DNA of 64,000 nucleotides, from the NCBI GenBank assembly GCA_000092065.1, contig CP000592.1, one strand, 5' to 3'. How positions within the stretch are numbered: the first letter of the stretch is position 1; each line of letters starts with the position of its first letter. Shown here piece by piece: positions 471 to 50,948 of this stretch. This DNA comes from Ostreococcus lucimarinus. Lineage: Eukaryota. The notes beneath the pieces were generated by a model. That model ran no database searches. It was not told the DNA's origin and saw only the letters and a list, made by a program, of their open reading frames with translations. The position numbers and the translations under genes are program-made.

Positions 471-1730
471 ATGGTCATCGCGCGCGCCGCGGGCGAAGGC
501 GTGAAGGTGGAGTCGGTGAAAAAACCGCGATTGCCCGCGCTGGACAGCGTGCGGTTCTTTTTGATCACGTACATCTCGGTCGGGCACTTTATCGCGTGCG
601 CGACGAAGAACGCGCTCGCGCTCGCGGCGTTTTCGCAAGTCAACGTCGTCGTCGGAGCGTTTTTCGTGCTCAGTGGGTACGTCGCGGCGTACACGACGAC
701 GGAGCTGGGCAAGTACGAAGCGCAGACGGGGCGATTACGCCCGACTCCAAAGTATTTCGTCAGTCGCGTGATGGGGTTTTATCCGCTGTACTTTGTCGTC
801 AACTGCGTCTTCGCGCCGATGTTTTTTTATGCGGATTCGTTTTACAACGGGCCGTTGACGGCCGCTGTGCACGGTTTCATGACGTTTACTCTCACCCAAG
901 CGTGGTTCCCCATGCACGCCGAGCTTTGGAACGCGCCGACGTGGTTTTTGAGCGCGTTCACGTTTGCCTTGGCGGCGATGCCGTTCGCGTTGCCGAGCGT
1001 GGCGCGCTTCAAGCGCGAGCACTTGCATTCGGTGTTCAAGGTGCTGATAATCGTGTCTCTCTTGGCGAAGATCGCGTACTCCTACGATCTCAACGCATGG
1101 GGCTTCATGGAAGGCATGATGTCCGCGAAGACGCACCCAAACTGGCTGTACTTTAACTCGGTGCGATTTTCACCCTTCAACGCTTTGATCGACGTCTTAC
1201 TCGGCGCCGTCGCCGCGCGAACCGTCATGGTGGACAGCGCCGAGGGCGAGTCCGTGCCGAAGCAAAACAAACTTTTGGCGTGCTCGGCGACGCCGTTGGT
1301 GGCCATGGTGGCGTTTCTAGCCGCTCGCGCGCTCGGCGTCGTCGCAGTCAACGACGCGTTATCGAGGACAATTTTCACCGTTTTGTTCTCCGCGTTCGCC
1401 GTCAACGTACACCGAGAGACGGTGCGCGAGGGCGGTGAGGGGTCTTTGGTCTCGAAGATTCTTTCGCTAAAACCTTTGGTGTACCTCGGAACGATTTCGT
1501 TCCCGATTTACATCTTACACGGTCCCATCGGTCAGGTGTTTTACAAGCGCGTCGTGGCGACGAAACTCTTCGGCAAGGTTTTCACCCAGTACCCGCAATT
1601 TTTCCCAATCTACCTCCTCATCGTTCTCGTCGCCGCCATGCTGACGCACGAGTTTTTCATTAAGAATAAAAAAGTGCAAGAGCTCAGTAAAGCGGTGAGC
1701 GACAAAGCCACGGCGGCGTTGACGGATTAA
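471..1730 (+). CDS. Acyltransferase family 3 (OafA-like) integral membrane protein
   Basis: ORF 231..1730. The motif LDSVRFFLITYISVGHF matches the N-terminal Acyltransferase_3 signature (LDGLRG..A..V...H). At least 8 hydrophobic helices follow. The first ~80 codons of the ORF are Arg/Ala low-complexity read-through of the CG-rich spacer, so the start is placed at Met471; Met387 and Met231 are alternatives. Confidence 0.6.
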   Translation: MVIARAAGEGVKVESVKKPRLPALDSVRFFLITYISVGHFIACATKNALALAAFSQVNVVVGAFFVLSGYVAAYTTTELGKYEAQTGRLRPTPKYFVSRVMGFYPLYFVVNCVFAPMFFYADSFYNGPLTAAVHGFMTFTLTQAWFPMHAELWNAPTWFLSAFTFALAAMPFALPSVARFKREHLHSVFKVLIIVSLLAKIAYSYDLNAWGFMEGMMSAKTHPNWLYFNSVRFSPFNALIDVLLGAVAARTVMVDSAEGESVPKQNKLLACSATPLVAMVAFLAARALGVVAVNDALSRTIFTVLFSAFAVNVHRETVREGGEGSLVSKILSLKPLVYLGTISFPIYILHGPIGQVFYKRVVATKLFGKVFTQYPQFFPIYLLIVLVAAMLTHEFFIKNKKVQELSKAVSDKATAALTD

Positions 1731-1931
1731 CGGCGAAAATCGTGTAAAACAATTTATCGAGACGACTTTTGTCTTTCATAAAAACGCTATCACCTCTTTT
1801 TTATATGCCTAGAGTGTTTCTTATCGGTTTCAAGCGAACGCGATCTAACGCGAACGCTCCCCCGGGTCTCACGACGCCCTCAAAGAGCGCGCTGACCAGC
1901 ACCCACGTCAACTTCGTCGCGAGGACGAAAT

Positions 1932-2477
1932 TTATTCTTCCTCGTTGTCGTCCGCGATGTTGAAGTATCTCAACTCGTACACGTTGCGTTCCTTGTTGGA
2001 CGCAATCACGCGCAACCAATCACGAACGTTGTGCTTCTTGAGGTACTTCTTCGTGAGGTACTTCATGTAGCGCTTGCTCATCGCGACTTCGCTCGTCACC
2101 GTCACCTTCGTCTTGTCGCTCGACACGCTCACCGCCTCGCCGAGCGCGCCCGCCTTACCACCAACCTTGATACGATCGGTGAGGAACGCGGTGAACGAAC
2201 CAATCTCCATAATCTTGTCCTCGACCTATTCGCATCAAAGAATATCGCATCGTCAGTCATCGTCCCTCGTCGTCGTCTCGAGTCGCGCGTTCGCCGCTCG
2301 CCCTGTATTTTAGGGTTTCACACGCACCGGCTTCGCGCAGTCGATGACAAAGGTGGAAACCTTCTTCTTCGTGTCTACGCCCGCGAAAACATCCCACGCA
2401 TCGTCAGTCGTCTCTCCAACTCGCTTCACTCGCGCGCATCCGCGTTCCCACGACGCGCGGCGGCGACGACGATCCAT
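1932..2477 (-). CDS. RPL22: 60S ribosomal protein L22e, two exons: exon 2 at 1932..2225, exon 1 ending at 2328, intron 2226..2327 (GTGCGT...AATAG); 5' end uncertain
   Basis: The ORF 1932..2210 product (...[16 protein letters not shown]...[43 protein letters not shown]) is a near-textbook eL22 C-terminus. The upstream minus-strand frame encodes [15 protein letters not shown], and splicing CCG|GTGCGT to aatag|GTCGAGGAC restores the conserved ...LDC..PVEDxIMD... junction. Exon 1 may begin at Met2477, or a further upstream exon may exist. Confidence 0.8.
2310..2318 (-). promoter_or_regulatory. Telo-box-like element (AAACCCTAA on the minus strand) just inside the RPL22 first intron
   Basis: Plus-strand TTAGGGTTT at 2310..2318 is AAACCCTAA on the gene strand, 9-10 nt downstream of the proposed GT donor. 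Telo-boxes are characteristic cis-elements of plant ribosomal-protein and translation genes (established knowledge); function here is inferred. Confidence 0.35.
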
Positions 2478-2808
2478 CCCGCCGATCGACCCATCGCGCG
2501 TCGGTCGCGCCCGCGCGCCGTTTCTCGACGCCGCGCCGCGCCGTCGTCGCGTTCGACGCGCCGTCGTCGCGGCGAGAATATCGTTCGCACCTTTCGGGGC
2601 CATGATGTCGTCGACGGGCGCTGTCGCGCGCTTCAAAGAGGCGTCGCGCGACGGCGCGGTCGCCGCGGTCGATGCGTCTGTCGTCCGTGTGTGACTCGAG
2701 ACCGCACCGGACCAATCAACCACCGCGCGCGCCTCGGCGCCGCGCGCGTTCCCTCACACGACGACGCCGACGCGCGCGCGATGGACGCGGCGACGGACGC
2801 GGACGCGG

Positions 2809-3099
2809 GTGCGATCGATCGACGCGACGCGCGCGCGCGGGCGAACGCGCGAACGCGCGAACGAACGACTGACGGCTGACACGTCGTCGACGACAGAGCG
2901 CCCGCCGCCGAGCCAAGACGCGCAGGACGCGCGCGATGAGGCCTCGGCGAAGGTGTACCTCGAAACTCACGTCACGAGCGTCCTGCACGACGCCCTGGTG
3001 GCGCTCAACGCCGCGCGCCCGGCGGACCCGCTCGCGTGGCTCGGCGAGTACCTCTTAAAAGAATCCGCCGCGCGAAAGGCGAAAGCCGACGCCGCGTGA
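2809..3099 (+). CDS. Small Dpy-30 motif protein (RIIa-like dimerisation/docking domain)
   Basis: ORF 96 aa. C-terminal YLETHVTSVLHDALVALNAARPADPLAWLGEYLLKES fits the Dpy-30 motif (..L.....RP.DPi.fLa.yLl). N-terminus is low complexity; start uncertain. Confidence 0.5.
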   Translation: MRSIDATRARGRTRERANERLTADTSSTTERPPPSQDAQDARDEASAKVYLETHVTSVLHDALVALNAARPADPLAWLGEYLLKESAARKAKADAA

Positions 3100-3341
3100 G
3101 CGCGCGTAGTGAGTGTAACGCACATCGCATCGAATTGAATGGCAAAATGGAAAAATGGAAACCTGTCCACGACGGGGCGTCCATACTACCGGGACGGGGC
3201 GTCCCGCATGCGCGGCGAAAAAAAGTGCGCTCGGACTCGCGAGCGCGCGCGAGCGTCGTCAGCGCGCGGACGTACCGCTTCGGCGCGATGTCAACGACAA
3301 CCGTTCGCCCAAAAAAAAGATGCGTTTAGATGTCCACTAGA

Positions 3342-3442
3342 TGTCCACGACGGGGCTCGAACCCGCGGCCTTTTGATGACTCGCGCGTCGCTCGCGCGCT
3401 TCGCGTAGAAGTCAAACTATCTTCCAACTGATATACGTGGAC
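3342..3442 (-). tRNA. tRNA-Arg (anticodon TCT) with a ~28-nt intron 3' of position 37
   Basis: Minus-strand read folds as acceptor GTCCACG / D-arm TATC-AGTTGGAA-GATA / anticodon stem TTTGA / loop CTTCTA / [intron CGCGAAGCGCGCGAGCGACGCGCGAGTC] / A-TCAAA / AGGCC / T-arm GCGGG-TTCGAGC-CCCGT / CGTGGAC-A. All stems pair; U33 and purine-37 are present; the T-loop matches the B-box GGTTCGANNCC. Confidence 0.65.
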
Positions 3443-3445
3443 CGA

Positions 3446-3530
3446 CCTGGGGATTGAACCCGTATCAAACAGAACGTCGACCTAGGTAATTTTACCCAAA
3501 GCCGAGTCGCGATAACCGACGCGGGGCGTT
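3446..3530 (-). pseudogene. tRNA-like remnant (T-arm/B-box-like GGGTTCAATCCCC) immediately upstream of tRNA-Arg; no complete cloverleaf
   Basis: Minus strand contains ...GATACGGGTTCAATCCCCAGGTCGG... resembling a T-arm, but its T-stem makes only 3 bp and I could not find a matching acceptor or D-arm. A further copy of the tRNA 3' end (TGTCCACGACGGGG) lies at 3163..3176. Confidence 0.3.
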
Positions 3531-3731
3531 TTCGGTTTATGTACGACGGCGTCGGCGCGCGTCGCGCGCGCGACGCGCGCGCGCGCTCGACACCCGTCGA
3601 CGCGCGGTCGACGCGCGCGCGCGCGACCGAAGCGACGCGTCGCGCGCGAGACAGAAGCGACGACTCGCGCGCGCGGTCGATCTCGAAACCGTCGAAGCGC
3701 GTCGAATCGAATCGAATCGAACGAGACAACG

Positions 3732-5024
3732 ATGGGTGTTGACGCGTCCGACGACGCGACGTCGCGCGCGCGACGCGTCTCGACGACGTCGACGAGCGAG
3801 CGACGCGGGACGGTGATGATGTCCATCGCGGTGATGGCGGTGTCGAGCCTGATGACGCTCGGGATCAAACGAGGGGTCGAGGGACGGGGATCTTCCGCGT
3901 TCGCGACGCCGTTCAAAGCCGCGCTCGGGCAGCGGATGAAGCACTCGACGTGGGACGAAAGTAATCAGCACGACGGTGGGAACGCCGCGGACGATGGATT
4001 TGTGTCGTACGAGCAACAGCGAGATTTCGAAGGACGCGAGTGGGCGTGGGAAAAGAGGATATCTTGCGATGGTCACGAGGCGTTGGATTTCGACGTCGAC
4101 GCCGTCGAGGAGGGGCGCAAGGCGCTTTGGCGGAACGCGTCGTTTTCGTTCCAGTTTTGGCGCACGCCTCGCTCGCGACACTTTCAGCTGTACGAGCAAG
4201 AAAACATACGCAATGCATTTTGCAAGGCGGGACAGTATCAGGTGAACATCGTGACGATGATGGACCACGCGGATTCGTGCGAGTTCGCGCGCGCGCACTA
4301 CGACAAGGGCGCCGAACAGTTTCCCAAGGATGCAAGTCAACATCTCGGGCGGGGCGCGTTTTATTGCGCCACTCGATCGATTTCGAATTTCCCTTACAAA
4401 CTCATGGCGGTATGCGGCGCTCGATCGATGATAGAGTTCAATCGCGTGGAGAACCTTGCCGCCGCCGTAAGGGGTGGCCAGTCCAACGCCGATTACAGCT
4501 TTCTGAACGCCTACTACGCCGACCCCGAGGATTTCGAAATCTCTTTGATTAATCATCGCATTTTCGACCCACAATTGAATCGCGCGTATCCTACGCAATT
4601 CCGTATGGGTTGTTACAAAGATGGCGCGGTCCGGCGTGCCAATAATTGTCAAGACGGAACGGCGTTTGAGCCGCGGCGCGTCATCTCAACGCGTCTGATG
4701 GGCGGCACGGTGGCTGCCGTTGTGAAGATTGGCTACGGTTATAGTCATTTGACCCGTCGCTGGGTTCCTCTTCAAGGTCAAGGCGAGCGTTGGTCGCTCG
4801 ATGACGATGGACTGGTGGTGGAGAGAAGGAGAAAGAGGGCGAAAGGGTGCGTATGCCCGAGCGACGAGGAAGCCATGACGCAAATGGCGCACCACGATGC
4901 TTTCAAGCATTTTCTCGCTTTTGAGGAAAACGCTGACCGAACCATAGGCACAACGAAAATGCACGAGTACGGCTCGTGTCATTGGGTAGACTTCGGACGA
5001 ACGAAGAGGAAACTCGTGGATTGA
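3732..5024 (+). CDS. Hypothetical type II membrane protein: short N-terminus, one TM (SIAVMAVSSLMTLGI), ~380-aa lumenal/extracellular domain; possibly glycosyltransferase-like
   Basis: Clean 430-aa ORF with no convincing antisense alternative. Body composition is visibly lower GC than the neighbouring genes. No family recognised by eye. Confidence 0.45.
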   Translation: MGVDASDDATSRARRVSTTSTSERRGTVMMSIAVMAVSSLMTLGIKRGVEGRGSSAFATPFKAALGQRMKHSTWDESNQHDGGNAADDGFVSYEQQRDFEGREWAWEKRISCDGHEALDFDVDAVEEGRKALWRNASFSFQFWRTPRSRHFQLYEQENIRNAFCKAGQYQVNIVTMMDHADSCEFARAHYDKGAEQFPKDASQHLGRGAFYCATRSISNFPYKLMAVCGARSMIEFNRVENLAAAVRGGQSNADYSFLNAYYADPEDFEISLINHRIFDPQLNRAYPTQFRMGCYKDGAVRRANNCQDGTAFEPRRVISTRLMGGTVAAVVKIGYGYSHLTRRWVPLQGQGERWSLDDDGLVVERRRKRAKGCVCPSDEEAMTQMAHHDAFKHFLAFEENADRTIGTTKMHEYGSCHWVDFGRTKRKLVD

Positions 5025-5062
5025 TTTTAGCCGTAGGTAGTATTAATGAAATTTCGATGTTG

Positions 5063-8000
5063 TCACCCAGTGTTTTGCATCCCGGCTGCGATGCCCTTCA
5101 TCGTGATTTTTAAAACGTCGTTCACCGCGCCCTTGTAATTGTAATCTTGGAACGGGTAACCCTCGAGCAAGGTGATCTTGACTTTTTGCATGCTTAGCTT
5201 ATCGCCATCTTCTTCATTTTCAAGCGCGCGAGCGGCGATGAGATATCGCACTTGACACACGTTGAGCGGCGTGATGTACAGCGACCGCTTGTGAAGTTTG
5301 TGAGCGAGCTTTTTATGCACCTGAACCGCCTCGTTCGCCTCGACTTTTTCTGGTTTGGCGAGCAAACCGATATGCTCGGAGACGGCGAGGATGCAATCGA
5401 TGCTTTCTTGAAGCTCGCCGCGCAGACTGGCGCCGAAGTCGTGCAATTTTGGATCGACAAGGGCTCTTTCGTAATACGCCACGACGACGGGATCCGCCTT
5501 GGCGAGCACCATCTCCACTAAATCGATCGTCACCTCAAAGAAAGGCCAACTTTTGTACATGTCCCTCAGCGTTTCCAGTTCGCCTTCGTCGATCAAGCGT
5601 CTGAATGATGTGGAAATTCCGAGCCAGACTGGCAAGTGGAATCGCGACTGCGTCCACGCGAAAATCCACGGAATTGCTCGAAGAGCGGTGACGCCCGCAC
5701 TCGGTTTACGCTTGGCCGGTCGAGAACCGATGTTGAGCGATCCAAGCTCGGCTCCAGGCGTGGCCTGTGCAAAGTATCCGACGAAATCAGGGGTTTCGAA
5801 CACAGTCTTACGATAATGCGCGCATGAGTATTCGCTCATTCTATCCATGACTCGGCGCCATTCATCGCGAGGATGCGCCGGCGGCTTCAACGTGTGCTCC
5901 AGAACGGACGCCGTGTACAAATCCAGAGTGTGAAAACAGTTTTCTTTTTCACCGAAGTCGGTTTCGATCACTTCTCCTTGCACGGTGACTCTGATGCTAC
6001 CATTCACAGTGCCTGGAGGCTGAGACAACATGGCAATGTGCGCTGGACCTCCCCCGCGACCTACGGTGCCTCCGCGACCGTGAAACAGGGTGAGCGCAAC
6101 GTCAAACTCCTTCCCTGCCGCCACGACGCGTTCTTGACCATCGTACAGCGCCCATGCTGCAGCCATGCGACCAGCGTCTTTTCCACTATCCGAATACCCG
6201 ATCATAACCTCTTGGAATCCCGCGATGTGGTCGTGATACCACTTCACGGAGAAGAGCTGGCGCAACACGCGCGGGGCGTCGTTCAGATCGTCGAGTCGCT
6301 CAAAGAGCGGTGCAACGCGAAGAAGATCCTGTTTGCGACAGCCACACTCGCGCTGTAATAATACAACTGCCAAAACATCGCTGGCACTTGTCGCCATGGA
6401 TATAACGTACGTTCCGAGGGCACCCGGGCACGTTTGTTGCAAGTGCGCAATCATCTTACACGTGTCCAGGACTTCTCGAACGTCGTCCGAGCATTCGAGG
6501 TCGGAAGGTAAAAGTGGCCGCTTGCTCTCAAGCTCGCGTGTCAGGAACTCAATTTTCTGTTCCTCACTCCATTCGAGGTACGATCCGAGGCCGATGTACC
6601 TGGTCACCGCGTCCAAAGCCTCGGCGTGGCGATCAGATTCTTGCCGGATATCGAGTTTGACCAGCCCCAACCCAAAGCACTGCACTTGGCGAATGACGTC
6701 GAGAAGATAGGCGTTGGCAATTTGAGCGTCACCGACTTCGATGAGAGACTCGTAGCACACCACCAAGGGTGCGAACAGTTCGTCCTTGGAACGAATGATA
6801 GTCTCGTCGTTCATGTCGATGTTGACGTCGTTGTCCGCGATGCAACGCTGCAACGCCTCTCGCGTGTTGTAAAGCTTGTCTCGAAGTTCAGCCAAGATGA
6901 CGCGGTAAGGCTCGTGCTCGGGAATGGCCTTCCAAAAGTCATCGTAGTTTCGCTTCTTGCGCTCTTCGAAGATCGTAAAGTTGTCCGTTTCCGAGTTCTC
7001 CAAGATGTCCTTTGCCAACGCCTTGACGGCGTCGTTGCATCGCCACATGGACAAATCGAAAATCAGACGCTGAATCGCTCGGAAGAGTAGGTTAACCCCT
7101 TGCACACGGGCCAAGAGAACGACGTCGCGCGTACATGATGCCGTGACGTATGGGTTGCCGTCACGATCACCACCCATCCACGACCCGAACGTAACGATGG
7201 ATCTGTCGAGCGGCAAACGAGGGCATCCGTTTGCCAAGAGCGACGTGTCCACGCGACGCATGAAAGTTGGGATGCCATCCCAGATGGTTTGCTGAAAGTA
7301 CGTCAGACCCGCGCGCATTTCGTCTTGAGGCTTCGGTGGCGTGCGGCGGATCTCATCTGTGCGCCACGCCGAGGCGACCTTCGATCGAATCTCGTCCAAA
7401 ACTTCTGCACGCTCGTATCGCGAAAGGCGAAATCGTTGCAGCTGCAACAGCTTTTCACGAATTATTCCGAAAGATTTCAACATCGACCGTCTCAAGGCTT
7501 GCGTGGGGTGGGCGGTGAGCACTAAATCAACGTGCTGCACCGCTAAAGCGCTGTAGATTTCCTCCGTCGACTTCCCGGCTCGAAGCAAACCTTTAATCGC
7601 GCCGTTCGTCGTCTTTGCCGGCCCTCGCGGAATATCGTCCAAACGTCTGTGTCTTTCCTCCATCGCGTTCGCCACTTGCTCGGAAATATTGTGCAGATTC
7701 AACAGATTCGAGTACGCCGACGCGAACTGCAACGATTCATCCACTTCCATCGTCTCCAACATCGCCTGCATCGCGTCGAAATCCTTCGGGTCGTGCGAGC
7801 TGCCAAACTTTTCGCTCGCCTCGTACACGCTCTTCAACTGCCCCAAAAACTTATCTCCCGCCGTCTCCCTCACCACGGCGAAGAAGATCGTCCGAAGCAG
7901 TTCATCACACTCCTCAATCACGTCGTGCGCGTTGAACTCCTTCGTCTCTCCCCTACCGCTCAGATAACTCGACGACCGCGCCAGGGCGTCCAGCGCCTCG

Positions 8001-44502: not shown

Positions 44503-45600
44503 TCACAGCGGCTTGACAAGGAGCGTGTTCGGTGCTTTCATCGACATCGCGAGCCCCCCTCTGCGGTAATCGGCGACGAGCGATCTGAAAGCTCGCTGTG
44601 TGGCGTCGATCGTTGCGCGCTCGAGGCGAAAACAGTTTGCTTGCGTGAAGACGTCGATTTTCATTTCCGTGAATTCGCCGGTATCGTTCAACGTGGGAAA
44701 GTACGCGTATCGCAAATCGGCGTTGTATGTTTTCGATGGAAAGCCTGCGTGATCGCCTATGCCTTCGTAATCGTTGAGAAGTTCTCCGCACCCAAAGAGT
44801 ATGAGTCGACGTTTGTAGAGCTCGGCGCTACGCGCGTGATGGCTCGAGTGTCCATGTACGAAGTGCGCACCAGCGTCAATCAGTCGGCGACAGACCATTC
44901 GCGTCTCCGGCTCAATCGAATACCCCCAATTGCCGCCGGCGTGCAGCGAGACGATTTTGATCGGCACGTCTGTGCGTTCGATTTCACGAGCGACTCGATT
45001 CAAGTCGTGTTCGTCTAGAATGAGAGCCAAACCCGCGGCGTTCCTTCGAGCCTGCCACGAAACCGGTACTCCTGAGTTTTCAAGACACAATCCAAATACC
45101 GCGGTGTCGGCAACAATCTTCGGTTCGAACGCCTGAAGGTCGTTTCGTCCTGCGCCCACTCGAGACGCTGAATCAATCGCGTCGAGTGTATCGATCAGTC
45201 CTTTGATGCCAAAGTCCAGTGTGTGATTGTTTGCCAGCGTCAGCACATCGACGCGCAAAGTTGCCAAGACATCGAGACAGTTTTCCTTCGACGCGCGATA
45301 ACACACTCCTTTACGCGGCCAAAACTCATCGTTCGTTGTCACTGACGTTTCCAAGTTTACGACGCTTAAGTCGATGGGCTCTCGCGAACGAAGAGCAGGA
45401 AGCAGGTCGCCGAGCAGTTCCTTCGCCGTCCAGGTTGGTTTACGCTGTATCGCGCACTTCTTCATCGCGAGGCGTACGTAGTCGTTGGCGTGCGTACAAC
45501 AAGATTCGCGTAGCGAGGCGTTTCGCAGCGGATTCGGAAGAACTTGATCCACGCCGCGCGCTAGCATGAGATCCCCGGCGAAAAAGAATTGCTTGGTCAT
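44503..45600 (-). CDS. CapA / PGA_cap family protein (bacterial poly-gamma-glutamate capsule-synthesis-type metallophosphatase)
   Basis: Typical CapA start FFFAGDLMLARG, and metallophosphatase blocks VNLETSV, LANNHTLDFG, VSLHAGGNWG and GHSSHH, with collinearity across about 350 aa. Lower GC than neighbours. Confidence 0.75.
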   Translation of the reverse strand: MTKQFFFAGDLMLARGVDQVLPNPLRNASLRESCCTHANDYVRLAMKKCAIQRKPTWTAKELLGDLLPALRSREPIDLSVVNLETSVTTNDEFWPRKGVCYRASKENCLDVLATLRVDVLTLANNHTLDFGIKGLIDTLDAIDSASRVGAGRNDLQAFEPKIVADTAVFGLCLENSGVPVSWQARRNAAGLALILDEHDLNRVAREIERTDVPIKIVSLHAGGNWGYSIEPETRMVCRRLIDAGAHFVHGHSSHHARSAELYKRRLILFGCGELLNDYEGIGDHAGFPSKTYNADLRYAYFPTLNDTGEFTEMKIDVFTQANCFRLERATIDATQRAFRSLVADYRRGGLAMSMKAPNTLLVKPL

Positions 45601-45670: not shown

Positions 45671-48514
45671 TCACGATTCGCCCGCAAACATGTTGAAGGC
45701 TCCTTTTGACAGCAGGTCGCTCTTGTAAGCCCCTTGCGCCAACACCTTCTTCGGTTTTCCGCTCGCCGTGTACTTTTTGAGCCACTGAGGAACTGAATCG
45801 ACGACTATCAAAACGTCCGTATACCCCGCCGACAGCGCGTGCTGCGCGGCGATCTCCGAGCGCTCGTCCGGCGACTCGTCGCCGACGAAAATCAGCGACT
45901 GTGCCTTATCGGCTGCGATGGATGCCAAAGCTTGCGCGAACGCGTCTTTGCCGACAATCGCGTACGTCGGCGAGAGCTTTGATCCTTCCGCTCGACGTAA
46001 AGGGACGTTAATGACGCCGTTGACCGATTCCATATTGAAAGCGTATGGGTTACGCACGTCGATCACCATCGATGATTTGGAAAGTAAACGCTGCACGGCG
46101 TCGTCGACGGAAATTGCCGTCAACGCGATGGCGCCTGAATCGCTCATCGGCGCCGAGAGCAACCAAATCTGATTCGTGACATCATACGCCGATGGATCCG
46201 CCCACTGACTCTTCTCGCTTTCGACGTTGTAAAAGTAAAGCCGATCGAACCTATCAAACGCCACTTTCCACGCGCTATTCGCGTTTGAATTCACCAGATG
46301 CTCCTCGAGTGCTTTCAAGTGGGCAATTTGCGCCGCTTTTCGCTCTTCCGCAAGACCTCCAACGACGGGAAGCTCGGCACCGACGCACGACGTACCAGAT
46401 GCACCGACCACCACGTCCAATTTCCATTCTTGTAAACGCTTTTTGCCGCCAGGTGTATACTCCTTCACCCAGCCATCGTACCCCCCATCGACAACAACGA
46501 CGTTTTCGTACCCGCGATCGATCAGCGCGTCCATGCAGCCGCACCGTTCGGGGTCATCCAACCCATTCGCTTCAATTTGACGCCCCCCGAGAAGCACTAC
46601 TGCAGCGTCTTTGTTTGGAAACTTTGAGGTGAAAACTTCAAGGAACTCTTGCGCATTTGTCGTGTACGTGTACGCAAGTGGTTTTCCTTCGATATTTACG
46701 AGAGGAATGTTCAAAGCGCCCGAAATGCTCTCGCGCCGAAACGATTTGACGTCACGAACGTCGATGACCGAGCACACGCCGGCTTTGAACGCGTCGAAAG
46801 CTTCTTCCACCGAAACCGTCATCCAGCGCTTGGACGATGGAGACTCTGGAATCGATTTTGACTGGATGCCTTCACTAGTCACCGTGAGTCGTCTTTCGGT
46901 CGATTCAAGTTCACGCTTCTCTCTGGCGCGCTTCATCGTCGCTTCGAGAAGCAATCTCCGCGCCTCTATGCTCTCTGGGCTCGCCTTGTTGATACGCATT
47001 TCTGCCGCGCGCGCGCGTCTCACTTCCTCGCGTTTCTTCATCGTCTTGCGCCAGTTATCCTTCGCCTCCATCGCCTCGCGCTCTTCATCCGTCAAGTCTT
47101 CCGGATTCTTTTGCCACTTCATGTACTCGATGGAGAGCTTTTGCGTCATCATGTACTGCTGCTGCTGTGCCAACTCCGTTGCCGCGTCAAACACACTTTG
47201 TGGGGAAATTGAAGCCCCTCGCACGACTTCTTTTGGCGTGTGATAGCGCCAGAGCGAGGAGTCATCGCCGACGTTTCCGAACAAGTCCTCCTCGCCCCCC
47301 AACGACATCTTTCGAATCAAAAACTCGCAACGCTCCCTGACGTCGACCTCGCACATCCAACGTGATACGGCGTCGTCGTATACTTTGGCCCGCGCGGCAC
47401 CAAAAAAGTCTAACGGCTGACCCGGGAACGCATTGACTAGACGCGCTGTGGCGTCTGGAGACCAGTCCACTTCGTCCTTGAAAAGTGCGTGCACGATGTC
47501 ACAGATATCGTCTCGACTAGGATTCCAGTACCACTTATCCATTCTTCCATCGCGCAACAATGGCGCGTAGACCGTTGATAAGTCGTTTCCTGTAACGATG
47601 ATCGGCACGCGCGCAGTTTGCAAATTTTTGCCATCTTCGCCGCGATCTTCGCCAAGACTGACGAGTTCTGGGTGATCACACAAATTCATTAGCGTGCCAC
47701 ACACGGTTTGGTTATTCACCGTGTGCTGCGTGTCCTTGAACCATCCAATACCAGCATCGACGTCGTTGATGATTAAACAGCTCATCACCCCCGTGCGTCG
47801 CAAAATTTCTCCTGCGCGCTTGTATCGCTCGCGAATCAACCGCCCTGGCGCGCCGGCGTTTTCGTCCTCCAACTCACCAGCGCTCGTGATGATCGGCGTC
47901 ACACCCATGGCTTTACACGCAAGTTCCAAATTAAACGATTTCCCGCAACCCTTGCCGCCCCAAACACCCAAAATCAGCGGGGTGTTAGGCGGTTGAACCA
48001 CGACTCCGGCTTCGTTTGTCATCTCTCGCACGTGTCGCAAGCCGCCGCCAAATAAAAAGTTCTTCACCAAGTGCCCGCTCACCTTCTCCATGAAAGCCGG
48101 TGGACAGTGGTAATCGCCGACTAAATTTTTAAACTTTCTAGCCTCTTGATACCGGTACCGAAGCTCGCCGCTCGCGATGTCGGAATCAGCGCCGAGTTGA
48201 AACTCGCCAGTGGCGTTGCGCGTGAAGACGTCGTCCACTACACCTTGTCGGGCGCCGACGTTTGTATTCGTGTTCCCGGTGTCGTTCTTCCCGAGCTCCA
48301 CGAGATAATCGCGCCCAATATTCTTCTGCGTCTTTTCACGCGCCGTCCAAGACGATGGACGGCGCGGACGACCACTCGACGACGTCCCGGAAGATGACGC
48401 CACGAGCGTCGACGAGCGTCGACGACGGACGCTCGACGGACGACAGGGACGACACGAGCGATCGACGTCCGGGGTTGATATCGCTCGTCCCACGGCGCAG
48501 ACTTTGCACGCCAT
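45671..48514 (-). CDS. Rubisco-activase-like AAA+ ATPase fused to rhodanese - WW - rhodanese modules
   Basis: RCA N-domain (CPPAFMEKVSGHLVKNFL). AAA+ core PLILGVWGGKGCGKSFNLELACKAMGV...LIINDVDAG...TVNNQ...VPIIVTGNDLSTVYAPLLRDGRMDKWYW is almost identical to the plant Rca core. Two rhodanese-like domains follow (VIDVRDVKSFRRESI..., MVIDVRNPYAFNMESV...) with a WW motif between them (WKVAFDRFDRLYFYNVESEKSQWADP). ORF runs to 48757; start trimmed to Met48514. Confidence 0.8.
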   Translation of the reverse strand: MACKVCAVGRAISTPDVDRSCRPCRPSSVRRRRSSTLVASSSGTSSSGRPRRPSSWTAREKTQKNIGRDYLVELGKNDTGNTNTNVGARQGVVDDVFTRNATGEFQLGADSDIASGELRYRYQEARKFKNLVGDYHCPPAFMEKVSGHLVKNFLFGGGLRHVREMTNEAGVVVQPPNTPLILGVWGGKGCGKSFNLELACKAMGVTPIITSAGELEDENAGAPGRLIRERYKRAGEILRRTGVMSCLIINDVDAGIGWFKDTQHTVNNQTVCGTLMNLCDHPELVSLGEDRGEDGKNLQTARVPIIVTGNDLSTVYAPLLRDGRMDKWYWNPSRDDICDIVHALFKDEVDWSPDATARLVNAFPGQPLDFFGAARAKVYDDAVSRWMCEVDVRERCEFLIRKMSLGGEEDLFGNVGDDSSLWRYHTPKEVVRGASISPQSVFDAATELAQQQQYMMTQKLSIEYMKWQKNPEDLTDEEREAMEAKDNWRKTMKKREEVRRARAAEMRINKASPESIEARRLLLEATMKRAREKRELESTERRLTVTSEGIQSKSIPESPSSKRWMTVSVEEAFDAFKAGVCSVIDVRDVKSFRRESISGALNIPLVNIEGKPLAYTYTTNAQEFLEVFTSKFPNKDAAVVLLGGRQIEANGLDDPERCGCMDALIDRGYENVVVVDGGYDGWVKEYTPGGKKRLQEWKLDVVVGASGTSCVGAELPVVGGLAEERKAAQIAHLKALEEHLVNSNANSAWKVAFDRFDRLYFYNVESEKSQWADPSAYDVTNQIWLLSAPMSDSGAIALTAISVDDAVQRLLSKSSMVIDVRNPYAFNMESVNGVINVPLRRAEGSKLSPTYAIVGKDAFAQALASIAADKAQSLIFVGDESPDERSEIAAQHALSAGYTDVLIVVDSVPQWLKKYTASGKPKKVLAQGAYKSDLLSKGAFNMFAGES

Positions 48515-48689
48515 CGCGGCCTGCGCGTCGGAGACTGACGCGACGCTTGACGACGCTTTATCCAGAGAGCCAACACCGGGAACGCGGCAGCCAGGCTTTC
48601 GGCGCGTCGGTCGCGCGAGGAGCAGGACTGGAGACGAGGAAGAGGCGACGAGTATACATTTAGCGTTCTTTAATTCGCAGCGTCTACGT

Positions 48690-50948
48690 CTACGATCTCG
48701 AGACGTAGCGGTTGCCCTCGAGCGTGAAGGTGGGTTTGGTGACGATGATGGTCTCATCGGTGTCGTCGTCGATCAAGGCAAAGTACGTCGATACCAATTC
48801 CGCCAAGCAACGGTGGAAGAGGTCGTTGGCGCGCCAGTCGCGCGCGGCGCCGAAACACGACACGCAGTCTTCGTGCGCCGCTTTCAAAGCATCACGCCAT
48901 TCGCGTTGAAACGCGACGAGTGCGTCACGAATGACGAGTGCATCAATGCTCGCGCCTTCACCGCTCCGACGGCGTCGCGAAATCGTCGTAATTCTCGGGA
49001 AGCGCTCCGCCAACGCGTGCGACACAAACGCTTTGGACTCTTCGATGAGTTTTTCTTCAAAGAAGTGCAGACTCGCGAGTTCTGTGGCGAGTTCGTCATC
49101 CTCAGCGCATCTCTCGACACCGTCATCATCGTTGAGATTCGTCAAAGAGCTTAACGTCGAGCAGATGTGATCGTACGACTTTACCAAATACGCGCTTCGC
49201 GAGCGAGGCGACGCCTTGAGCGAAGCGCACAGCTTACTCGTAACACAGTCGTACATCGACCGTCGCAAACGATCGAGAAACAAATCAACCTGATTCGTAA
49301 CGTTAAGTTCATCCGCAGAAGATGCGCCCATGCGCGAATGTGCCACTGTGGTGAGCGCGAGGACAAAGTTTGCGTATCGCTTCACGATGAAACTCGGCGA
49401 CTCTGGATTGGGCTCGAACGACTCTCGCGTGTCCTCGAGCGACTTGACGTGCGCATCACACGCGTGCTTGAACTTCGGCCAAAGTATCATGTTCAAGTTG
49501 TCGATGTACGCGTCCAGCGCGGGCACTCGGCGACGATTCATCACGCGTCTGTGGGCGTTGTTCACGCGGATGGCAATCAACAGCCCGACGGCGTCGTGCC
49601 CAGACTGCGCAACGCCTTGGGCGACGAAATCGTTGTACGCCATCAGTGGACCGGTGAAAACGATTTCAAACATTTCGCGCTCGCCTTTCCAAAATACTTC
49701 GCAAAACGCATACTCGAACGTCGCGGTGTCTATGAGCAGGCGATGCGCGCTTCGGAACAACTCCTCGTAGGCGTGCGCTTCTTGCCTCACCTTGTCCGAT
49801 TGCCGATGCACCACCAACGGAGGCTCTGTCTCTGCCGCATACATGGCACGCGCGCGATTACCAAGATCAAACAAGCTGTCGCCATTCGTCTCATCAGTCT
49901 TGGACGCACTAGAAGACGCCGGCGACGACGTGATGCCCGCGAACATTCCAGCCAAGGCGTTCGCCGCCGCCGACGCGACGTCGGTCGTCGCCGACGTTGT
50001 TGCCGTCGTCGAGGAAGTCGTGCGCGTCCTGGATGCGAGCAAAACTCGAGATCTAGGCGCTTTTGTGACGCGCTTGAGCGAATCCAAATACGAAGTCATC
50101 GCCGTTTTCAACACTTTTCCCACGACATCCGCGTAAGTGCTCTTCACCTCCCAATACACCTCTGGTCCTCGCTTACGTAGGAACTCGATCAGAGGCGCGT
50201 GTCTCGCGAGTGAATTTTCTTGAATTAACTGTACGTTCGCGCGTGGCTTCTTCAACGCCGCGAATTCACCGTACAAGAAGGCCCAAGCGCGGTCGACCGC
50301 CTTGACGCGCAGTCGCTCGAGTTCTGGCGCGACGTCGTTTACAGCGCGACCCGCGCCTTTCGATGCGGACACACTGAGATGATCCAACTTCACCTCGAGT
50401 TCGCGAACGCCTTCGACAAATCCCCCGTCACCGCCGACGAAGTCGCCGTTAAACACGGCGTTAATCAGCGACGGCGGTACCGAAAGCGCCTCCACCGCGT
50501 CGCCTAATTTTCGCTCAGCTCGCGCGCGGTTTGCACTTCGCACGCGTAAATCTTCGCTCGAACGCTGTAACTCCCTAATTTCCATCGATATACGCCCTAA
50601 ATCGTCCTGAAACGTCTTCAACGTTTGTTCCATGTCGCTCAATATCCCGTCGCACGCGTGCACTTCGCCTTGCAGTTGCAGTAAATTCTCGCACTCATCC
50701 GCGTGAGCGTCGATCGAGCGACGCTCGACGTCCACGAGTTTCATTTCGATCTCCCTCGCGCGTCGATCGAGGGATTCGAAATCACCATCATCGTCATCCT
50801 CGCCGTGCTCGTCGTCGTTTTCTCGTCGCAACAGCGCTCGAATGACTTCGTGATTGGCGTACCGCAGTAACGATGCCGACGTGGGAGTCAGCGTCGACGT
50901 GTCGTTGACGCCGCGCTCGGGTGCTCGCATCACGCTCGTACGATCCAT
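48690..50948 (-). CDS. VPS52: VPS52 (GARP complex subunit, Sac2 family)
   Basis: N-terminal coiled-coil block LQLQGEVHACDGILSDMEQTLKTFQDDLGRISMEIRELQRSSEDLRVRSANRARAERKL is typical of Vps52 (LQ..S..M..RL.NR). Full length about 750 aa is consistent. Confidence 0.7.
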   Translation of the reverse strand: MDRTSVMRAPERGVNDTSTLTPTSASLLRYANHEVIRALLRRENDDEHGEDDDDGDFESLDRRAREIEMKLVDVERRSIDAHADECENLLQLQGEVHACDGILSDMEQTLKTFQDDLGRISMEIRELQRSSEDLRVRSANRARAERKLGDAVEALSVPPSLINAVFNGDFVGGDGGFVEGVRELEVKLDHLSVSASKGAGRAVNDVAPELERLRVKAVDRAWAFLYGEFAALKKPRANVQLIQENSLARHAPLIEFLRKRGPEVYWEVKSTYADVVGKVLKTAMTSYLDSLKRVTKAPRSRVLLASRTRTTSSTTATTSATTDVASAAANALAGMFAGITSSPASSSASKTDETNGDSLFDLGNRARAMYAAETEPPLVVHRQSDKVRQEAHAYEELFRSAHRLLIDTATFEYAFCEVFWKGEREMFEIVFTGPLMAYNDFVAQGVAQSGHDAVGLLIAIRVNNAHRRVMNRRRVPALDAYIDNLNMILWPKFKHACDAHVKSLEDTRESFEPNPESPSFIVKRYANFVLALTTVAHSRMGASSADELNVTNQVDLFLDRLRRSMYDCVTSKLCASLKASPRSRSAYLVKSYDHICSTLSSLTNLNDDDGVERCAEDDELATELASLHFFEEKLIEESKAFVSHALAERFPRITTISRRRRSGEGASIDALVIRDALVAFQREWRDALKAAHEDCVSCFGAARDWRANDLFHRCLAELVSTYFALIDDDTDETIIVTKPTFTLEGNRYVSRS

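Follow-up and report, generated by a model that had tools for sequence, protein, structure and literature searches.

The Rca-rhodanese gene of Ostreococcus lucimarinus

The subject of this analysis is a gene on the minus strand of a 64,000-nucleotide stretch of Ostreococcus lucimarinus contig CP000592.1 (hereafter the window), located at positions 45671..48514, that encodes a divergent paralog of Rubisco activase (Rca). In this protein, a full Rca body is followed by two rhodanese-fold domains separated by a WW domain and by two short conserved tails. Photosynthesis under fluctuating light and heat is limited by Rubisco activase, the regulation and localization of which depend on its accessory domains. 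Two accessory designs of Rca are understood, namely the redox tail of the plant alpha-isoform and the SSUL domain of cyanobacteria; the family described here represents a third design that combines an intact Rca-type motor with altered Rubisco contacts, an array of predicted inactive rhodaneses and invariant peptide tails. The finding concerns a family rather than a single oddity, and although its sequences are public, the architecture is undescribed in the literature searched, where we found no paper on an Rca-rhodanese fusion.

The coding sequence (CDS), which comes from the nuclear DNA of O. lucimarinus CCE9901, is complete and intron-less and consists of 947 codons followed by a stop codon at 45671-45673. 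The uninterrupted minus-strand open reading frame (ORF) in the program-made list extends from 48757 to 45671, whereas the upstream gene on the same strand, a Vps52 homolog (Pfam Vps52_C, E 9e-42), ends at 48690. Because the ATG at 48514 is the first in-frame one past the Vps52 stop, the CDS is taken to start there and to encode 947 aa, in agreement with the coordinates of the sequence-only reading. The 81 codons of the ORF located 5' of this start (48515-48757, minus strand) are non-coding; they overlap the 3' end of the Vps52 gene by 68 nt, in a different frame, and the true intergenic spacer is ~175 bp.

A gene-model artefact, in which adjacent Rca-like and rhodanese genes are read as one ORF, would agree with the NCBI model XP_001420873.1 (ABO99166.1, "predicted protein, partial"), which ends at residue 390. 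However, this entry is marked as partial, spans only residues 49-390, that is, the Rca-resembling part, and belongs to the cluster (P0001) of the identical 947-aa protein called on 198 contigs in NCBI, JGI, Logan and ENA assemblies. No stop codon interrupts the 2841 nt of the CDS, and 11 cluster representatives of the Ostreococcus and Bathycoccus types (the query and 10 others, among them the Bathycoccus-type cluster P0011 with members annotated as Bathycoccus prasinos, e.g., CAL6286276.1) are collinear from end to end. The region between the AAA+ and rhodanese parts is itself conserved, including the Rca C-terminal helix, the KWQKNPEDLT stretch and the helical linker, and the fusion is retained not only in the Ostreococcus and Bathycoccus types but also in distant prasinophytes. 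Given the full-length collinearity of the 11 representatives and the lack of stops, a merger of two genes is very unlikely, and the sequence-only reading was right to treat this locus as a single gene. The JGI pipelines call the P0001 protein a "rhodanese-related sulfurtransferase", the other automatic label being "P-loop NTPase". Both public models of the O. lucimarinus Rca-like proteins, this one and the P0042-type model described below, have been trimmed to their Rca-resembling part, which has kept the architecture out of sight in routine annotation.

Domain layout of the protein

Pfam profiles match the query at residues 184-329 (AAA, E 3.5e-11), at residues 334-395 (RuBisCO_activase_AAA_helical, PF21228; E 6e-12, 46 bits against a cut-off of 27, with the match reaching only profile positions 1-61 of 96) and in two stretches that correspond to the Rhodanese family (E 7.7e-18). 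Plant Rca structures match with E-values from 1e-68 to 1e-70 (tobacco Rca, 3T15, E 9e-70), and the alignment with Arabidopsis Rca (4W5W) covers query residues 78 to 393; because it starts at residue 78, homology with Rca extends to the N-domain. Two structural models were used, a full-length AlphaFold model from a 53-sequence alignment (mean predicted local distance difference test score, pLDDT, of 75) and an AlphaFold2 model of residues 545-947 from a 40-sequence alignment (mean pLDDT 83). The percentages of invariant columns given below were computed across the Ostreococcus and Bathycoccus types, and all coordinates of features are on the minus strand.

The presequence (residues 1-55, 48350..48514) is rich in Ser and Arg, with a net charge of +10, has 0% invariant columns among orthologs and is modeled with pLDDT of ~30; by its composition, it is probably a plastid transit peptide. 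Its first 25 residues (48440-48514) include two CxxC motifs (C3/C6 and C21/C24) that lack conservation among the orthologs and are probably incidental. The Rca-type N-domain (residues 56-130, SSWTAREK...DYLVELGKNDTGNTNTNVGA..., 48125..48349) aligns with positions 20-66 of the Arabidopsis Rca chain and has 47% invariant columns, with pLDDT <50 and predicted flexibility. The AAA+ module that follows (residues 131-395, 47330..48124), which consists of the alpha/beta and helical subdomains, is delineated by Pfam, PDB alignments, the motif map and pLDDT of 80-95.

The next region (residues 396-470, 47105..47329), defined by the family alignment, includes the equivalent of helix H9, an insertion of ~40 residues and the Rca C-terminal helix, in which QQQQYMMTQKLSIEYMKWQ of the query is the counterpart of plant EQENVKRVQLADKYL; in the full-length model, helices span residues 392-402 and 438-468. 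It is followed by a charged helical linker (residues 471-560, 46835..47104; 46% KRDE, helices 476-508 and 513-545) that terminates in a conserved motif with the consensus IPxPPSxKRW (residues 555-564, 46823-46852), located immediately before rhodanese domain 1 of the long forms. At this site, polyproline or PE-rich stretches occur in the relatives with a single rhodanese, and such proline motifs could serve as WW ligands, in cis or between subunits.

The C-terminal half starts with rhodanese-fold domain 1 (residues 561-695, 46430..46834), identified by Pfam, modeling, fold search and family alignment. Tail 1 (residues 696-720, EWKLDVVVGASGTSCVGAELPVVGG, 46355..46429) is conserved and predicted to be disordered, with an invariant Cys710. 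A connecting helix (721-745) and the WW domain (746-776, with Trp749, Tyr760/Phe761, Trp771 and Pro774; together 46187..46354) lead to rhodanese-fold domain 2 (residues 798-920, 45755..46123), identified by blastp, modeling and alignment. The protein ends with tail 2 (residues 921-947, ...KKVLAQGAYKSDLLSKGAFNMFAGES, 45674..45754), a highly conserved C-terminal motif with low pLDDT at its end. A composition scan of the 947-aa protein found no transmembrane-like segment.

An intact motor with altered Rubisco contacts

Residues of functional importance in the Rca of Nostoc and of plants, as listed by Flecken et al. (2020, bioRxiv 10.1101/2020.05.16.099382), were mapped onto the family. The query retains Walker A (GVWGGKGCGKS, residues 183-193, 47936-47968), Walker B (CLIINDVDAG, residues 246-255, 47750-47779), pore loop 3, the arginine fingers of RDGRM (R321 and R324, 47534-47554, aligned with R169 and R172 of NosRca) and sensor 2 (GAARAKVYDD with R375, 47372-47401), along with IIVTGND and the TVNNQ motif that includes the Gln pairing with the pore-loop Tyr. 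The arginine fingers and sensors 1 and 2 are invariant in 53 relatives. By this map, every residue required for ATP binding and hydrolysis is intact.

The same map indicates that the query has changed the residues by which canonical Rca holds Rubisco. In particular, in pore loop 2 (47708-47752), Tyr188 (tobacco numbering; Tyr116 in Nostoc) is replaced by His264, with His or Gln in 14 of the 14 long-form clusters, and the loop is one residue shorter than in canonical Rca; this Tyr is essential in plant Rca according to the passage of Flecken et al. (2020) that cites Stotz 2011. The alpha4-beta4 loop LPGMYNK is LGEDRGED in the query, which thereby loses the Pro and the Tyr that contact RbcL and RbcS (Flecken et al., 2020), and the end of helix H9 has changed from ..LLNS to ..LIRKM, with loss of the Asn and an insertion after it. 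A basic residue is retained at the alpha3-beta3 contact (RRTG in the query vs. RK-G in plants). The conserved N-domain aromatic residue needed for Rubisco recognition is Trp16 in tobacco; judged from the spacing, its counterpart in the query would lie close to Tyr70 (DYLVELG), with Trp56 (SSW) further upstream, in a region where the alignment is unreliable. Hence the sequence-only reading, according to which this part of the protein is near-identical to plant Rca in motif content, applies to the ATPase motifs but not to the core as a whole, which is 44-46% identical and differs in several Rubisco-contact residues.

The P-loop of the query is GKGCGKS, with Cys190, compared to GKGQGKS in canonical Rca. 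The Cys at the same position of p97/VCP (Cys522 in the D2 Walker A) makes that ATPase oxidant-sensitive, and Cys190 could similarly provide redox control of ATP binding, which we regard as a lead and not as a result. Variation is also seen in pore loop 1, which contains a Trp (DEWAGE) in P0015, P0021, P0024, P0028, P0047, P0200, P0201 and P0203 and lacks it in canonical Rca (SGNAGE) and in the query (DENAGA). The position of this Trp is that of the substrate-gripping aromatic residue of classical AAA+ translocases.

Rhodanese domains, WW domain and tails

The model of residues 545-947 shows two alpha/beta rhodanese-type domains, both with pLDDT of ~90, along with a long helix and, for the WW domain, a sheet of three strands. 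The top Foldseek matches in the PDB are tandem rhodaneses (6mxv, E 2e-11; bovine rhodanese; MST). Domain 2 is an internal duplicate of domain 1 (29% identity by blastp, E 7e-16), and the best match of domain 1 among the PDB sequences, from which its origin was judged, is Arabidopsis At5g66040 (PDB 1TQ1, E 8.8e-5). The WW domain matches the Pfam profile at query residues 748-774 with 20 bits, under the gathering score of 26.9; the profile nevertheless matches all 11 of the 11 orthologs, with a best E-value of 6.6e-7, and the three-stranded sheet appears in both models. Thus, the rhodanese-WW-rhodanese order after a full Rca body, proposed from sequence inspection, is borne out by Pfam, by two structural models and by the fold search.

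The enzymatic role proposed along with this order does not hold. The catalytic Cys of At5g66040 (IVGCQSGGRS) lies opposite a two-residue gap in domain 1 of the query (VV--LLGGRQ). When 41 rhodanese-type domains from 33 family proteins were aligned with At5g66040 as the reference, the catalytic column was occupied by Leu642 (VVLLGG) in domain 1 and by Val877 (LIFVGDES) in domain 2, with a Cys in only one of the 41 domains, that of P0039; furthermore, the active-site loop of domain 1 is lengthened by the acidic insertion GLDDPER. Both rhodanese domains are therefore predicted to be catalytically dead and to act as adaptors rather than as sulfurtransferases or phosphatases. A motor coupled to an active sulfurtransferase, a phosphatase-like enzyme or a rhodanese that senses redox state at its active site could draw on the reality of the folds, on the JGI label and on Cys658 and Cys660, which lie at the end of the domain 1 loop insertion and are conserved in the Ostreococcus types. 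Given that these two residues are not kept in the Bathycoccus types and that the catalytic Cys is missing from both domains and from 40 of the 41 aligned ones, such a role is unsupported and we consider it highly improbable, including the redox sensing via the rhodanese active site that had been suggested.

The two tails match the ATPase core in their degree of conservation. Invariant columns make up 64% of tail 1 and 67% of tail 2, compared to 61% of the AAA+ alpha/beta core, 36% of rhodanese domain 1 and 18% of domain 2, and both tails have pLDDT <50 over all or most of their length in both models. Conservation combined with predicted disorder is the pattern expected of peptides that fold on a partner. 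A likeness of tail 2 to the N-terminus of RbcL, as a pseudo-substrate, was considered by eye and was discarded as too weak to use.

Distribution and origin of the fusion

An exhaustive HMMER search of 1.84 billion representatives yielded 1399 relatives with E-values of up to 1e-3; 136 of these fell at or below 1e-30. Among 476 retrieved proteins, a number that includes redundant cluster members and fragments, a rhodanese-like domain is present in 290, with two copies in 78. An Rca-like region with a single C-terminal rhodanese was detected in Cymbomonas, Pycnococcus, a Micromonas-like clade of "short" forms, the O. tauri protein P0042 and many marine sequences; a Prasinoderma sequence without a precomputed Pfam rhodanese match is recognized by the family-specific rhodanese hidden Markov model. 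The addition of the WW domain, the second rhodanese and tail 2 was found, among the relatives retrieved, only in Ostreococcus-type and Bathycoccus-type sequences. Accordingly, the statement of the sequence-only reading that canonical Rca has no such extension is correct for canonical Rca, but the extension is not unique to the query, given that a single rhodanese, predicted to be dead, is common in prasinophyte Rca-like proteins.

The tail 1 motif, GxxGTxCVGxE, forms the C-terminus of single-rhodanese proteins in the short clade, Cymbomonas (P0028), Pycnococcus and Prasinoderma, whereas the terminus WTASN recurs in many divergent relatives. Given that single-rhodanese proteins of several classes terminate in the tail 1 motif, the ancestral unit consisted of the Rca-like core, the linker, one rhodanese and the tail. 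The long form gained the helix, the WW domain, the second rhodanese and tail 2 by duplication. A separate case is P0255, a 573-aa, GC-rich, green-alga-like protein that is a canonical Rca (MGGTTQYTVNNQ) with two copies of a SAP-like motif at the C-terminus, SLGELRALARQRGVRGDTKAELI. This SAP-like extension suggests that C-terminal additions to Rca arose more than once in green algae.

Paralogs, phylogeny and genomic context

Ostreococcus encodes at least three Rca-family genes, namely a canonical Rca, a P0042-type gene and the Rca-rhodanese-WW-rhodanese gene. In O. tauri, the gene named RuBisCO activase in published work is ostta04g02510, with a protein abundance of ~ log2 24.8; it is located between a PsbP-like gene and Snf7, and a Na/sulfate symporter follows further along (PMC12216367 supplements); UniProt A4RW20 is given as the O. 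lucimarinus Rca (Flecken et al., 2020). Canonical Rca was sought by a motif scan (QYTVNNQMVN) of metagenome contigs, which recovered intron-less canonical genes on contigs with GC content typical of Bathycoccus, Ostreococcus and Micromonas. In particular, the Ostreococcus-type contig L034 (GC 0.57; 1629-7710) carries a canonical Rca with QYTVNNQ in an ORF at 3523-4768 with the ATG at 3647, in the order Snf7, Rca, a 279-aa ORF, Na/sulfate symporter, which is that of O. tauri ostta04g02520-02490. The core of this protein is 72.8% identical to Arabidopsis Rca, so the canonical activase that one would look for elsewhere is present. Further intron-less canonical genes lie on contigs with GC of 0.47-0.49 and 0.64-0.73 and are probably of the Bathycoccus and Micromonas types, respectively.

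The P0042-type protein of O. tauri (594 aa, CEF97602.1; locus CAID01000004.2:485183-502967, L004 8001-9785) consists of an Rca-like core, a linker and one Cys-less rhodanese and ends with ...EETFWTASN; its O. lucimarinus copy is XP_001417523.1, an NCBI model that is partial, at 381 aa. We considered the possibility, suggested by matching annotation names, by the location on chromosome 4 and by the accession numbers, that P0042 is ostta04g02510, in which case Ostreococcus might have no canonical Rca, and rejected it: P0042 adjoins Dof/ion-channel and HMA/ATG2/SecY genes rather than PsbP and Snf7, and the canonical Rca is found between Snf7 and the Na/sulfate symporter.

In a simple neighbor-joining tree built from 284 core columns, in which the deep nodes have no support, the canonical clade (plants along with the Mamiellales-like L034, L043 and L011) is recovered at 100% bootstrap support, and the query is placed outside it. 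The query belongs to the long-form clade (100%), the sister group of which (66%) is the short clade of 671-759-aa proteins with one rhodanese. No synteny was found between the window and the short-clade loci (P0021), so the orthology of the short and long forms depends on the tree (66% bootstrap). In the core, the query shows 44-46% identity with plant Rca and 42% with the canonical Rca of the Ostreococcus type; the values for the P0042 type and for a soybean Rca-like protein are 49% and 50%, respectively. The query is therefore a divergent Rca paralog, as the sequence-only reading had it, and not the canonical activase of the cell.

The position of the query within a broad assemblage of functionally uncharacterized Rca-like paralogs, which includes land-plant and Chlamydomonas RCA2-type proteins (our literature search found no functional study of either), opens the possibility of a neofunctionalized AAA+ remodeler with a non-Rubisco plastid client that the rhodanese, WW and tail modules would recruit. 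The loss of Rubisco contacts in a retained motor fits this scenario, as does the pore-loop-1 Trp (DEWAGE) that was gained in many relatives and is typical of promiscuous AAA+ translocases. The query clade, however, lacks this Trp, the N-domain, which is responsible for Rubisco recognition in plant Rca, is strongly conserved, and none of the data presented here suggest an alternative client; we regard such a change of client as a tentative and rather unlikely alternative.

The gene order in the window is Methyltransf_11, PGA_cap, the Rca-rhodanese gene and Vps52. The PGA_cap/CapA-like gene directly downstream (44503-45600, minus strand; Pfam E 7e-59) is surprising in a green alga, given that this family is known from poly-gamma-glutamate capsule synthesis in bacteria; no PGA_cap annotation was found in the O. 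tauri gene lists searched. The order in O. tauri is Methyltransferase type 11 (ostta12g03170), P-loop NTPase (ostta12g03180), mitochondrial carrier and Vps52 (ostta12g03200), with consecutive identifiers for the first two genes and the mitochondrial carrier located between the P-loop gene and Vps52. By synteny, ostta12g03180 is probably the ortholog of the Rca-rhodanese gene; it is included in a list of rhythmic transcripts, with a peak at zeitgeber time 0 (ZT0) in long days.

This dawn phase of the probable ortholog would also suit a classical Rca isoform that clears inhibitory sugar phosphates from form IB Rubisco and in which the C-terminal array is only a regulatory extension, similar to the redox-sensitive tail of the alpha-isoform. 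The complete Rca body with its N-domain, the intact motor, the basic residue at the alpha3-beta3 contact and the conserved Cys190 (P-loop) and Cys710 (tail 1) are all compatible with such a role. Conversely, Tyr188, the alpha4-beta4 Pro and Tyr, and the H9 Asn are all altered, the query falls outside the canonical clade, and a highly abundant canonical Rca is already present, as indicated by the abundance of ostta04g02510 and by the L034 gene. On balance, a classical isoform appears unlikely.

Proposed function

The explanation that we favor, and to which we give about an even chance, is that the protein is an Rca-like ATP-driven remodeler that delegates its targeting or regulation to the C-terminal adaptor modules and whose client is probably Rubisco-related. 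Under this scenario, the protein would be imported into the plastid and would assemble as an ATP-hydrolyzing ring, alone or mixed with its paralogs. The C-terminal modules would supply client recognition, localization or on/off control, in parallel with the SSUL domain of cyanobacterial Rca, and the two invariant tails might mediate docking to a partner or to the ring. Rubisco or a Rubisco-associated complex would be the most likely client, given the Rca ancestry, the conserved N-domain, the dawn-phased probable ortholog and the occurrence of rhodaneses in pyrenoid proteins.

Several observations weigh against this explanation. The loss of Tyr188 and of the alpha4-beta4 and H9 contacts argues against canonical Rubisco repair, and the Rubisco-related client is putative. 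Ostreococcus is not known to have a pyrenoid, which weakens a role in condensate tethering. The full-length AlphaFold monomer shows no docking or ordering of the tails beside the AAA+ module. In the Bathycoccus type, three of four sequences have another residue at the second Trp of the WW domain, so that binding of proline ligands may not be clade-wide, and Cys658/Cys660 leave a residual doubt as to a lineage-specific, non-canonical thiol site. Finally, both plastid targeting, for which the composition of the presequence is the indication, and the orthology with ostta12g03180, for which it is synteny, are probable rather than certain.

A bolder version, which we consider speculative and on the whole unlikely, is that the predicted dead rhodaneses and the invariant tails are binding modules directed to Rubisco or its compartment, in which case the protein would be a eukaryotic counterpart of Rca-SSUL. 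If this is true, the fusion would be a "Rosetta stone" that accounts for the repeated occurrence of rhodanese domains among pyrenoid proteins (STR16, STR18, RBMP2 and CAS); with twelve rhodaneses on display, a hexamer of the long form could tether, cluster or gate Rubisco, with possible redox control via Cys190 of the P-loop and Cys710 of the tail.

The carriers of the long form, the Ostreococcus and Bathycoccus types, are ecologically dominant marine picoalgae. Because they have the canonical Rca alongside, they offer a natural system for probing the function of Rca-like paralogs, which are also kept by land plants and Chlamydomonas. The family further provides a concrete, testable starting point for explaining why pyrenoid proteins carry rhodanese domains.

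Comparison with known systems

The query and the green-type Rca (tobacco 3T15, Arabidopsis 4W5W and L034) agree in the N-domain, in both subdomains of the AAA+ module (alpha/beta and helical) and in the C-terminal helix, as well as in the Walker A and B, TVNNQ, RDGRM and sensor 2 motifs. The query differs by ~480 additional C-terminal residues, by a core identity of 42-46% and by its position outside the canonical clade.

The closest parallel in overall design is the Nostoc protein NosRca (6Z1D), in which an Rca AAA+ core (aligned with that of the query at E 1e-57) is also followed by a flexible linker and a small globular C-terminal domain. The SSUL domain of NosRca is attached by the linker, binds Rubisco, adds valency and brings the activase into the carboxysome (Flecken et al., 2020). 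In contrast, the accessory part of the query comprises two rhodanese folds and a WW domain instead of a domain similar to the Rubisco small subunit, and Rubisco binding by these modules is hypothetical; the N-domain is present in the query and absent from NosRca.

The single-rhodanese Rca-like proteins of prasinophytes (CEF97602.1/P0042, XP_001417523.1, CYMTET_36667, CYMTET_55056, PPROV_000171300 and the short clade) have in common with the query the core, the charged linker, the Cys-less rhodanese and the motif [YF]TPxGK[KR]R that ends the rhodanese domain. They contain one rhodanese and no WW domain, and the P0042 type ends with ...WTASN rather than with tail 1.

Among the Rca-like proteins of land plants and Chlamydomonas, including those of Glycine max (P0059), Physcomitrium (XP_024374400.1) and Chlamydomonas schloesseri (HYH02_005378), Tyr188 is absent, as in the query, with Met, Cys or Val in its place. 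Their pore loop 2 is equally short, and they belong to the same non-canonical assemblage; unlike the query, they lack a rhodanese and keep the Gln of the P-loop. Arabidopsis At1g73110 and Chlamydomonas RCA2 are further Rca-like paralogs of this kind. Because the backbone of the tree is not resolved, orthology of the query with these proteins is not established.

At5g66040 has the rhodanese fold in common with the query and possesses the catalytic CQSGGRS loop, whereas the query lacks this Cys and its loop departs from the normal length. We take At5g66040 to be AtSTR16, a member of a family named for a pyrenoid-matrix rhodanese. The rhodanese fold is also common to the query and the pyrenoid rhodanese proteins of Chlamydomonas. 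Four such proteins of Chlamydomonas (STR16, STR18, RBMP2 and CAS) have rhodanese domains, the role of which is unexplained (PMC10473226), and the recurrence of these domains in pyrenoid proteins likewise awaits an explanation (PMC10473226; preprint 10.64898/2026.07.16.738900).

Finally, the extension of the plant Rca alpha-isoform (Quercus and Vicia, ...DPTARSDDGSCxY) and the tails of the query are both conserved flexible C-terminal peptides with Cys, regulation of the motor being the role of the former. There is no sequence similarity between them; in the query, each tail comes after a folded domain, and Cys710 is the only invariant Cys of the two tails.

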